Notes: a model not told the origin generated them from the letters alone. A stretch of 10,374 nt of DNA from Candidatus Methylomirabilota bacterium (GCA_046726415.1 JBKPAK010000126.1:1-10374), one strand, 5' to 3'. Positions 1,598 through 8,755 are shown, counted from the first letter of the stretch. Numbers and translations: made by a program.

Positions 1598-1866
1598 CCG
1601 CGGTGACTTGTGAACGACCGTAACCGAGAGCTGGGCGGGCAGCACCCGATCCCCCGGGCGAGGGCCTGACCCACCATGACCGTGAGCCGGCCGGGTGGCG
1701 CCGTGGATGGTTCTGCGAGCGTCCGCAGCGTCGGTGAATTCCGGGTGACTCCGGTTGCCCTTGCCCGGCTGTTCGAGGAGTGCTTCGAGCGAGGACGTCG
1801 GCAGAGCCACCCACGGCGACAGGACCCGGCCGCCTCGCGCTCGAGATCGTTCATCGGCAGCTCCAC
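1598..1866. mobile_element. Putative MITE-like / highly structured 269-bp insertion between polA and coaE
   Basis: Flanked by the direct repeat GCCTAG (1592-1597 and 1867-1872). Imperfect inverted ends CTAGCCGCGG-N7-TGAACGA (1594-1617) and TCGTTCA-N9-CCACGCCTAG (1847-1872). Long internal inverted repeats. Removing the insert plus one repeat leaves polA TAG-GC-ATG coaE. Confidence 0.55.
1681..1839 (+). repeat. Long imperfect inverted repeat (hairpin with a branched apex) inside the polA-coaE element
   Basis: CGTGAG 1681-1686 pairs with CTCGCG 1834-1839. CGGCCGGGT 1688-1696 pairs with ACCCGGCCG 1824-1832. CGCCGTGGATGGTTCTGC 1699-1716 pairs with GCAGAGCCACCCACGGCG 1801-1818 (16/18 Watson-Crick). 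CGTCC 1720-1724 pairs with GGACG 1793-1797. Apical hairpins at 1741-1768 and 1771-1790. Confidence 0.85.
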
Positions 1867-1868
1867 GC

Positions 1869-4451
1869 CTAGACCTGCGACCAGTCAGACCCGGTCTTGA
1901 CGTCGACCACCACCGGGACGTCGAGCGGGAGAGCGTCGGCCATGATCTCGCTGGCCAGGCGCTCGACCTCCGAAACCTCGTCGGCCGGCGCCTCGAAGAG
2001 CAGCTCGTCGTGCACCTGGAGCAGCATGCGCGCGGCCAAGCCACGCGCCTGGAGGGCCTCGTGCACGCGAACCATCGCGATCTTGATCATGTCGCTGGCC
2101 GTGCCCTGCACCGGCGCGTTCATGGCCATCCGCTCGGCCGCATTGCGCGCCACCGGGTTCGTGGACTTGAGATCCGGCAGATAGCGTCGGCGGCCAAGCA
2201 GCGTGGTGACGTAGCCGCGCTCGCGTCCCTCCGCGACCGTGCGGTCGATGAACGCGCGCACGCGAGGGTGCATCGCGAAGTACTCGTTGATGTAGCGCTG
2301 GGCTTCCTTCTGGTCGATCTTGGTGGCCTGGGAAAGGCCGAAGGCGGAGACTCCGTACAGGATGGCGAAGTTGGCGCTCTTGGCGATGGTGCGCTGAAGC
2401 GGGGTGACCTCCTCGGGTGGGACTTTGAACACCTCGGCGGCCGTGCGGCGGTGAATGTCCTCCCCGCGCTGGAAGGATGCGATGATGGCCGGCTCCCCCG
2501 AAAGGTGCGCGAAGATTCGCAGCTCGATCTGGGAGTAGTCGGCGGCCACGAAGCGCCAACCCTCCTCGGGAATGAAGGCGGCCCGGATCCGGCGGCCCAG
2601 TTCCGTCCGGATGGGAATGTTCATGAGGTTGGGATCCTGCGAGCTGAGGCGTCCGGTGGCGGCTACCAGCTGATTGAAGGTCGTGTGGATCCGCCCCGTG
2701 TCGCGGTTCACCAGGACGGGTAAGGCGTCGGCGTACGTCCCCTTCAGCTTGGAGAGCGTTCGGTGCTCGAGCACCTTGGCCGGCAGCGGATGTCCGAGGC
2801 TGAGGTCGGTCAGCACGTCGACGTCGGTCGAGTAGCCGGTCTTGGTCCGGCGGGCCCGCGGCAGCTTGAGCTTCTCGAACAGGATGTGGGCAAGCTGCTT
2901 GGGGGAGGCGATGGTGAACTCCTCGCCAGCCAAGGCGTAGATCTCGCGCGTCAGATTGTCGAGCTGGCGCTCCAGTTCTTTCGCGAAGTCCTCCAGGCGG
3001 CGGGGGTCGACGCGGATGCCATGGCACTCCATGAGCGCGAGCACTGGCACCAGGGGCCGCTCGATGTCCTCGTAGATCCGGAGAAGATCGCGGGCCTCCA
3101 GCTCCGCGCGCGCGTGCTCCCAGTAGCGCCAGACCCACTGTGCGCGCGCGCCCAGCACCGCGTTCAGGTCGCCATCCGCGGCGCCCGCACCCGGAGCGGG
3201 CATCGACGGCGGGCACGACCCGAACGCCTCCATGCAGATCTCGTCGAGGCGGTACGTCTGACGCGCGGGATTGAGGAGGTATGAGGCCACCGCGCTGTCC
3301 TCCACGCGTCCCTGGCGGGCGCCGGAGGCCAGCCACCACTCGGCGACGGGCTTGGCGTCGTGGACGACCAACTCACGCGCGCCGAGCGCCGCCGTCAGGA
3401 CTTCCGCCGGCGCCGCCGCGGCGCCGATTTGGGGATGAAACAGCGCGGCCGCGAGCATGCGCGGAGCGGGTGGCCGGCTCTCGCCCGCCCACTCCAGCGC
3501 GAGTGGCGCGTCCGCGGGCGCGCCCCCGAGCCACGCCGCGAAGGTCTCGGGCGTCGTCAGCATGTCTACCGGCTCCGCTCTCGTCTCGACCTTCAGGACC
3601 GGAAGCTCCTTGACGAGCCGGGTGAACTCCATCTCCATCCACAGCGCCCGAAGCCTGACCCAGTCTGGCTCCACCCGTCGGAACGCCTCGAGGTCGAAGG
3701 CCAACGGCACGGAGTGCGACAGTACCGCCAGCTCTCGCGAGAGCACGGCCTGCTTGCGCTGGGTGGCCAAGGTCTCGCGGAGCTTGCCGGAAACGAGCGA
3801 GAGGTTCTCGTACAGCCGCTCTACGCTGCCGAACTGGCTGATCAGCTTGACCGCGGTTTTCTCCCCCACCCCTTTCACGCCGGGAATGTTGTCGATGGTG
3901 TCGCCCATGAGGGCGAGCACATCGGCGATCTGACCGGGATCCACACCCCAGCGCTCCCGCACCTTGGCCTCGTCGTAGACTACGCGTTCACCGGTTCGAC
4001 CCAACACGGACAAGGCGCGCACGCCCGGGCCGACGAGCTGCAGCAGATCCTTGTCCCCACTGACGACGGTGATATCGACGCTGTGAGCGCGCGCGTGGTC
4101 CACCAAGGTGGCCAGCACGTCGTCCGCCTCGAACCCCGCCACCTCTATCACAGGCACGCGCAGGGCTTCGAACAATCGCCGCACATAGGGAAGCTGCTGG
4201 ACCAGGTCGTTGGGCATCGATGTCCGGGTGGCCTTGTACTCGGCGAAAAGGTTGTCCCGGAACGTTGGACCCGGCGGGTCCCAGGCGATCCCCAGGTAGT
4301 CGGGCTGCTCCTCGCGAATGAGCTTCCACAGCATCGTGCTCAGGATGAGCACGGCATGAGTGGGGACGCCTTTCGATGTGGAGAGGAAGCCCACCGCGTG
4401 GTAAGCGCGAAAGAGATGCGAATGCCCGTCGACGATGTAAAAGCTCGGCAT
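1869..4451 (-). CDS. polA: DNA polymerase I, 860 aa (5'-3' nuclease, degenerate 3'-5' exonuclease-like domain, family A polymerase)
   Basis: 5' nuclease motifs VDGHSHLFRAYHA, FEADD, SGDKD and GDTIDNIPGVKGVGEKTA. Polymerase motifs TGRLSSQDPNL, ADYSQIELR (A), RTIAKSANFAILYG (B) and LQVHDELLF (C). Confidence 0.98.
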   Translation of the reverse strand: MPSFYIVDGHSHLFRAYHAVGFLSTSKGVPTHAVLILSTMLWKLIREEQPDYLGIAWDPPGPTFRDNLFAEYKATRTSMPNDLVQQLPYVRRLFEALRVPVIEVAGFEADDVLATLVDHARAHSVDITVVSGDKDLLQLVGPGVRALSVLGRTGERVVYDEAKVRERWGVDPGQIADVLALMGDTIDNIPGVKGVGEKTAVKLISQFGSVERLYENLSLVSGKLRETLATQRKQAVLSRELAVLSHSVPLAFDLEAFRRVEPDWVRLRALWMEMEFTRLVKELPVLKVETRAEPVDMLTTPETFAAWLGGAPADAPLALEWAGESRPPAPRMLAAALFHPQIGAAAAPAEVLTAALGARELVVHDAKPVAEWWLASGARQGRVEDSAVASYLLNPARQTYRLDEICMEAFGSCPPSMPAPGAGAADGDLNAVLGARAQWVWRYWEHARAELEARDLLRIYEDIERPLVPVLALMECHGIRVDPRRLEDFAKELERQLDNLTREIYALAGEEFTIASPKQLAHILFEKLKLPRARRTKTGYSTDVDVLTDLSLGHPLPAKVLEHRTLSKLKGTYADALPVLVNRDTGRIHTTFNQLVAATGRLSSQDPNLMNIPIRTELGRRIRAAFIPEEGWRFVAADYSQIELRIFAHLSGEPAIIASFQRGEDIHRRTAAEVFKVPPEEVTPLQRTIAKSANFAILYGVSAFGLSQATKIDQKEAQRYINEYFAMHPRVRAFIDRTVAEGRERGYVTTLLGRRRYLPDLKSTNPVARNAAERMAMNAPVQGTASDMIKIAMVRVHEALQARGLAARMLLQVHDELLFEAPADEVSEVERLASEIMADALPLDVPVVVDVKTGSDWSQV

Positions 4452-4538: not shown

Positions 4539-8755
<4,217 letters not shown>

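Follow-up and report, generated by a model that had tools for sequence, protein, structure and literature searches.

The spacer between polA and coaE in the window (the whole 10,374-nucleotide stretch of DNA analysed here, which is contig C126 of a 7.6 Mb source genome in 352 contigs) contains an element that spans 279 bp from CTAG to CTAG, at 1594–1872. This element is probably, with a likelihood that we put at a little under four in five, an old and partly decayed non-coding MITE copy using ends of the IS1380 family, which is related to piggyBac. It belongs to a large family of repeats, it is an insertion, its ends are common to IS1380 elements, and the arms of the family have evolved in concert through compensated changes. 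Its span is wider than the segment 1610–1854 which the initial annotation had described as a candidate novel non-coding RNA or folded single-stranded DNA.

The element at the polA-coaE junction

All of the genes around the element are on the − strand. The upstream neighbor is polA, encoding DNA polymerase I (1869–4451; Pfam DNA_pol_A, 4.7e-159, together with 5′–3′ exonuclease domains), and the downstream neighbor is coaE, encoding dephospho-CoA kinase (953–1591; Pfam CoaE, 1.3e-57), which is followed by ksgA/rsmA (159–956). Further upstream is glnE (4539–7547), with a P-II gene, a histidine phosphatase gene and gltX beyond it. The spacer that houses the element, from the polA stop to the coaE start, is 277 nt long (1592–1868). 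The left CTAG (1594–1597), a putative copy of the 4 bp target, is 2 nt from the coaE ATG (complement of 1589–1591), and the right CTAG (1869–1872) includes the polA TAG stop (complement of 1871–1869), such that the coding strand reads ...CAG GTC TAG, then the element, then ...CTAG GC ATG.... In 7 of the 14 relatives with a readable junction the polA stop overlaps the coaE start (as GTGTGA, GTATGA or GCATGA), and the spacer in the window is therefore an insertion; in G002, a member of the same genus as the window, the spacer is just 10 nt. We propose that the element landed in a CTAG containing the polA TAG stop and so split the junction. It would be a passenger at this locus that contributes a strong hairpin to the transcript, the transcribed strand being the reverse complement. 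A selfish element would then have parted the polA-coaE pair and placed a very stable hairpin before an essential gene, a concrete example of an operon reshaped by a MITE.

Other relatives carry unrelated inserts of about 0.3–1 kb between these two genes (of about 0.5–1 kb in L139, L142, L146 and L148; another, L137, is from the unpublished genome G011), and because several genomes took up unrelated DNA here the junction is a recurrent landing place. In soil DNA, one contig of X1 covers 1200–2015 with five differences; none of the soil contigs provides a near-identical, isogenic empty allele. Two apparent skips in the soil data (1576>1949 and 1578>1975) were considered as excisions and rejected, as they are imprecise joins of low likeness from other organisms. 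Soil-metagenome contigs with the element vary at positions 1609, 1644, 1654, 1674, 1722 and 1737, and the variant 1644 A>G would make a G–C pair with C1659 in the 5′ hairpin described below. No empty sites for two copies in another genome (G062) were found in genomes of the same genus, where alignment extended over the left coding flank only, the intergenic DNA having diverged too far.

The repeat family and the IS1380 elements

A first DNA search of 41 genomes gave short matches in 13 of them, mainly to window positions ~1806–1854, and the loci of these matches contain palindromic units of 120–280 nt with ends of the form CTAG-CCCGGATTATTCATGAAC. Of the 183 genomes of the order, 68, representing 27 of its 58 genera, contain the most conserved motif of the family, GACAGGACCCGNCCGCCTCGCG (1818–1839, + strand), with no more than two mismatches; a reversed-pattern control gives 0–1 matches per genome. 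Copies of this motif number 45 in G108, 32 in G087, 22 in G082 and 20 in G062. Rokubacteriales, a soil lineage represented here by MAGs only, thus carry up to dozens of copies per genome of a MITE of IS1380 type, a family for which there appears to be no description in the literature searched. The end consensus, allowing up to three mismatches, was scored in five genomes and occurs 83 (G108), 48 (G087), 31 (G062), 10 and 3 times, with none for the control. The paired ends listed are ~100–220 bp apart, and end-motif matches are often at the ends of contigs; MITE copies break assemblies there. (Three genomes that are unpublished, G011, G047 and G167, are counted in these tallies.) In the genome to which the window belongs, the copy described here is the one full core at E ≤ 0.001 among the 150 of ~15,339 candidates that were scored, alongside diverged fragments such as a short two-arm version at C16:3764–3867.

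Among the public loci with an exact match to the motif, 52 of 71 are titled Candidatus Rokubacteria, Rokuibacteriota or Methylomirabilota (a hand count of titles). The other 19 are in MAGs titled as other phyla, including Verrucomicrobiia, Deferrimicrobiaceae, Limnocylindria and Gemmatimonadota (L062, L074, L065, L095, L098, L109, L113 and L115 are among these). Several of these 19 loci have full elements, an indication of mis-binned contigs, of mislabelled bins or of transfer. The matches in Amycolatopsis and Rhodovulum have no hairpin and seem fortuitous.

The elements are located at the ends of genes. Among 72 copies, 22 are between convergent genes, 16 are antisense and eight sense within tandem genes, one is between divergent genes, and 25 are partly uncallable. 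Where a flanking frame continues into the element for 60 or more codons, its stop is TAG in 13 of 23 right-hand cases and in 10 of 20 left-hand cases, the pattern that a CTAG target would give in DNA of 70% G+C. At one gene junction (with downstream flank ...GGTCGCCAGCGCGAGCTTGCC) one genome has a full element, whereas two others, from two genera, have half-elements that differ from one another (L005/L107 in G021, L006/L116 in G016, and L042 in G072); the 22-nt motif is intact in all of them. The site could be an ancient insertion, inherited in common and constrained, or else a CTAG hot spot that is used repeatedly.

The relationship to IS1380 is seen in the ends. IS1380 transposase genes (E ≤ 1e-30) are present in 42 of the 183 genomes of the order, and 15 of 30 IS1380 loci examined have a MITE-like end; both ends are recognizable in 11, at 1,532–1,708 bp from one another, and CTAG, or a sequence one base different from it, adjoins every one of these ends. 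The arrangement common to the MITE and to the 1.5–1.7 kb IS1380 elements of relatives is CTAG followed by CC(C/T)GG...TTC.TGAAC, and the two differ in that the MITE has no transposase. The transposase of the larger elements corresponds to the NCBIfam IS1380 model (213 bits, full protein) and to Pfam PF13701. Members of the IS1380 family have target repeats of 4–5 bp and ‘CC’ ends. A 5 bp direct repeat is given for IS1247 of this family in PMC3281130, and IS1380 transposases are placed as a prokaryotic outgroup of piggyBac in PMC10813416.

In the window's own genome there are 15 end-like sequences (five for the reversed control), and these adjoin IS1380 transposase fragments recognized by PF13701 and NCBIfam IS1380. 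The genome yields 17 PF13701 matches, mostly partial and many near contig ends, and has at least two IS1380-type insertion sequences with identical ends at contig breaks (C84, C324, C252, C279, C75, C320, C87 and C307). It also has an 82-bp mini-element (C304:7336–7417) with similar ends, a small GACAG-containing hairpin and a direct TTAG...TTAG repeat, and this favors duplication of a 4-bp target over a longer inverted repeat. Most copies of the family cannot separate these two since CTAG is palindromic; it is present on both sides in 15 of the 34 copies with both ends recognizable.

Several observations weigh against a MITE of this parentage. The core motif is absent from the 30 IS1380 loci examined, which therefore do not account for the core. 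The repeat is carried by 15 of 42 transposase-positive genomes and by 53 of 141 transposase-negative genomes (a hand count), and is therefore not enriched where the transposase is present. Four high-copy genomes (G062, G082, G107 and G108), all fragmented MAGs, have no transposase match at E ≤ 1e-30, and a Pfam transposase search, again of fragmented MAGs, gave no match in either G062 or G026 and, in G108, just a fragment interrupted by an in-frame stop. The ends of the window copy are also poor, its own genome has no second full core among the candidates scored, and no isogenic empty site was found. We considered IS630 as an alternative parent, given the TA within CTAG, and rejected it; DDE_3 is present in three of five genomes, and a MITE end is within reach at none of six loci.

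Anatomy, folding and covariation

We identified 114 distinct cores, 67 of which are 140–149 nt long, and the family has several constant features. First, the distance between end and core is fixed, at 36–37 nt on the left and 34–35 nt on the right. Second, a basal helix of 4 bp (CGAG/CTCG) is followed by P1, an 8 bp helix of GGNCGGGT with ACCCGNCC, in which N co-varies (G–C in 22 copies, A–U in 20 and C–G in 18; 60 of 61 are paired and the last is gapped). Third, P1 leads to an asymmetric loop of GG versus ACAGG, and beyond it to P2, a stem of about 27 bp in which the pairing is kept and the sequence is highly variable. Finally, the apical module has conserved GAGTGGG and GGGTGAC sequences and an 8-bp hairpin with a GAA or GCA loop. 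Of 72 cores, 18 have the family end consensus CTAGCCCGGATTATTCATGAAC on both sides and 18 more have it on a single side, and there is no recognizable IS1380-like end, allowing up to six mismatches, in 32 of the 72; cores of this last kind often have diverged yet still inverted versions of the family ends.

The window copy departs from this arrangement in part. Its left terminal inverted repeat (1598–1619) is decayed, matching, together with CTAG, 14 of 22 positions of the family end consensus (hand alignment), and its inner part is GTGAACGACC. The CGAG of the basal helix (1625–1628) is followed by a copy-specific stretch (1629–1688) that includes a 5′ hairpin (1632–1673) and is missing from canonical copies, in which 36–37 nt separate the TAG of the end from the core. 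The conserved core (1689–1833) contains P1 (GGCCGGGT at 1689–1696 with ACCCGGCC at 1824–1831), the asymmetric loop (GG at 1697–1698 versus ACAGG at 1819–1823) and the long stem P2 (~1699–1724 with 1793–1818); the segment 1840–1868 begins with the CTCG of the basal helix, and the right terminal inverted repeat within it is decayed and contains indels. All of these are given on the + strand. A covariance model (R1), for which 61 further copies were used and the window was left out, matches 1689–1833 end to end on the + strand (55.9 bits, E 8e-8), scores 24.6 bits on the − strand of the window, and gives 12.6 bits for the next best match, or background. The model passes over the 58-nt apex (1733–1790), and the 5′ hairpin is outside the match. 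P1, the GG/ACAGG loop and P2 of the window are thus those of the family, and the apical hairpins and the 5′ hairpin are private to the window copy. Part of the apex and the 3′ arm (1734–1831) recurs in only one copy, from the same genus, at 82% identity (L004). The copy-specific positions 1629–1662 have short matches of 85–88% in C144 of the same genome and in G032:C131, and may be a second small repeat or a chance product of G+C-rich DNA.

All of the stems listed in the initial annotation are present in the sequence and in the + strand MFE structure predicted by RNAfold, which contains the 5′ hairpin, a rod of 1681–1724 with 1793–1839 and both apical hairpins. The closing stem of GTGAACGACC (1610–1619) with GATCGTTCAT (1845–1854) has eight Watson-Crick pairs, one G-T and one C-A, and the basal helix pairs CGAG at 1625–1628 with CTCG at 1840–1843. 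The predicted RNA fold of 1605–1860 is better than that of shuffled sequences, moderately so, with −137.0 kcal/mol on the + strand versus −115.1 ± 5.6 for shuffles (z −3.88; none of 200 as good) and −128.3 kcal/mol on the − strand (z −2.36; 4 of 200 as good), and the fold of the element is therefore above chance only moderately for DNA of 70% G+C. With single-stranded DNA parameters (1594–1872) the order of the strands is the opposite, with z of −1.31 on the + strand (20 of 200) and −2.60 on the − strand (2 of 200). The + strand G-U bias reported earlier, about eight against two, is not reproduced at that size; the MFE folds of 1610–1854 contain 12 G-U among 89 pairs on the + strand and eight among 87 on the − strand, and those of the whole element contain 13 of 101 and 10 of 99, respectively, both strands folding at −142.9 kcal/mol. 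The strand bias of the window is small, and varies with the boundaries and the energy parameters.

Across 61 sequences of the family and 47 predicted pairs, 96.3% of cells are paired, compared with 81.2% when the partners are shuffled (a value reached in none of 500 shuffles) and 40–48% when partners are slid by 1–3 columns. Two-sided changes are present in 26 of the 47 pairs, in 406 cells versus 128 in the shuffles, and the covariation score is 0.374, against 0.111 for shuffled and ~0.07 for slid partners. Covariation among homologues, which the initial annotation had put forward as a check, is thus strong. The ‘multi-domain’ structure that it described stands in so far as it reflects a non-chance, conserved foldback of a large repeat family, but the extra domains (the 5′ hairpin and the apex) are not features of that family. 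The fold of the window copy is the whole-length foldback of the family, composed of the terminal inverted repeats, basal helix, P1, GG/ACAGG loop, ~27-bp stem and apical module, with the addition of a private 60-nt insertion and a divergent apex.

The arms also change in concert within a genome. Among 13 copies in G062, paired columns have changed by 3.4% per site, and 12 pair-cells have changed on both sides, 11 of them remaining Watson-Crick, where 0.69 would be expected if the sides were independent; a second subfamily has 11 such cells versus 1.36 expected. These counts within subfamilies are inflated somewhat by shared descent. In one G062 copy (L218, on C28) the same 1-nt deletion is found in each arm of the long stem, and several others (among L216–L233) have mirrored transversions. 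Compensated change is seen in the transposon ends too, as in CTCGTGAGCGGG / CCCGCTCACGAG of L077. Compensation in small mobile repeats is already known, as it has been described for bcr1 of Bacillus, in which base-pair compensatory changes preserve the RNA-level structure (Delihas 2011, PMC3184786), and for REPINs, which are hairpin doublets with conserved ends and a variable spacer whose pairing is the critical property, compensatory changes being common (PMC3116915). The compensated arms within single Rokubacteriales genomes make a good natural system for the upkeep of hairpins, in which selection through transposition may be set against arm-to-arm correction.

Alternative readings and known systems

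We favor the view that the pairing is maintained because it helps the element to propagate, or because one arm of the palindrome is corrected against the other, and that it would not be kept for a functional + strand RNA of the polA-coaE locus. A cut-and-paste DDE transposase gives no evident reason for selection on a 27-bp internal stem, which counts against a simple MITE, and the asymmetric loop, the conserved unpaired motifs and the excess of isolated G-T over A-C mismatches (40 versus 22) would fit a strand-specific, single-stranded function. There is some chance, albeit a rather small one, that the core is a strand-specific structured ssDNA or RNA with a function of its own and not MITE filler, its features being the GG/ACAGG loop, the repeated GGGTGRCG and the variable ~27-bp stem. 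It could be a hairpin needed for movement of IS1380/piggyBac type or a transposon-borne small RNA, with arms kept complementary by templated arm-to-arm copying, to which the mirrored indels and transversions within the burst of one genome point. It is unlikely that the 145-nt core functions as a structured RNA of one strand (a small RNA or a cis element) spread by a MITE shell, with the window copy a candidate + strand ncRNA antisense to polA-coaE. This RNA reading draws on the strong covariation combined with the conserved unpaired motifs GG/ACAGG, GAGTGGG and GGGTGAC, although a DNA-level palindrome process would produce an equal covariation result. In 43 of 51 cores RNA folding is more favorable for the motif strand, on average by 4.4 kcal/mol, and strand constraint is suggested by purine-purine versus pyrimidine-pyrimidine mismatches (74 versus 34) and by the G-T excess (p ~0.03 in 114 cores, whose copies are not independent; 24 versus 14 in 72 cores, p 0.14). 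There are also no Rfam matches, either at gathering score in the window or at E ≤ 1 in six loci with typical copies. Set against this, an RNA function would not survive the inversion of the apical module that is seen in two copies (L052/L126 and L101), gene orientation is without clear preference (16 antisense versus eight sense in tandem, and 22 convergent), the compensated change in the ends of L077 points to a process at the level of DNA, and the window copy has no family apical module. Selection on the + strand, which the initial annotation had proposed, is weakly indicated at best: the G-T excess belongs to the family, and the strand difference in the window is lost for the full element and reversed with DNA parameters. 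No terminator-like site was found, and the sole promoter-like match, to a sigma-70-type promoter (TTCACG-18-GATAAT, 9 of 12 positions; 1472–1501, + strand), is antisense within coaE about 100 nt upstream of the element; it overlaps the codons for a conserved motif of CoaE, and coding probably accounts for it. The RNA runs found contain 0.00–0.05 of the sampled words, and one run (X17) covers only 1976–2139, in polA, with reads from other organisms (relatives). An antisense ncRNA at the window copy is not supported. Most of the novelty claimed for the structure is also gone, since the initial annotation had allowed that a match to an Rfam or ISfinder family already described would remove it and the element is a MITE with IS1380-family ends; such copies can pass for structured RNA genes in sequence scans.

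In the two copies with an inverted apex, the apical module of ~75 nt is the exact reverse complement of that in L067/L110 and the outer arms are unchanged; this would be expected from recombination between inverted arms or from a nested insertion.

It is appreciably less probable still that the foldback is the ssDNA substrate of a structure-specific enzyme (of the tyrosine/HUH transposase type that acts on REPINs, or of the integrase type that acts on attC) and that the IS1380-like ends are secondary. The architecture is attC- or REPIN-like, in that the base is conserved, a stretch outside the helix is asymmetric and the stem is variable but paired; the mirrored arm changes, the 1-nt deletion included, would agree with this, as would the 32 of 72 cores in which no IS1380-like end is recognizable. 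However, these apparently endless copies often have diverged inverted ends, the end-core distance is fixed, and the elements are single dispersed copies at gene ends and do not form cassette arrays. The Y1_Tnp domain (PF01797) is absent from all five genomes searched, three of them high-copy genomes at 86–100% completeness, although controls gave matches; a RAYT/IS200 mobilizer was rejected on this basis. There is next to no likelihood that the spacer encodes a small protein. A 90-aa ORF (1594–1866, − strand), with its start near an ATG inside the right end, is open from one side of the element to the other, terminating in the left CTAG, but open frames are trivial in this family (on the + strand in 66 and on the − strand in 69 of 70 cores). 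The ORF has no Pfam matches, and its G+C content by codon position (0.63/0.68/0.78) is unlike that of its neighbors (0.70–0.77/0.44–0.52/0.88).

A non-coding MITE, our preferred reading, has several parallels among known elements. The Correia/nemis elements of Neisseria, the enterobacterial ERIC sequences and bcr1 of Bacillus are likewise small and non-coding, have terminal inverted repeats and short target repeats, are intergenic at gene ends, and fold over their whole length; the Rokubacteriales element differs from them by its IS1380-type ends, its CTAG target, its host and its conserved GG/ACAGG loop. Integron attC sites are structure-conserved, sequence-variable hairpins with asymmetric unpaired bases that are located just after stop codons, and the element may resemble them in this; it differs in being present as single dispersed copies and not in cassette arrays, and no GTTRRRY boxes were seen. 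The likeness to REPINs and their RAYTs is in the paired, variable spacer and the compensatory changes; Y1/RAYT was found in none of the five genomes, and REPINs are ~70–100 nt long, whereas the Rokubacteriales elements are 120–280 nt with ends and a target that look like those of a DDE transposon.
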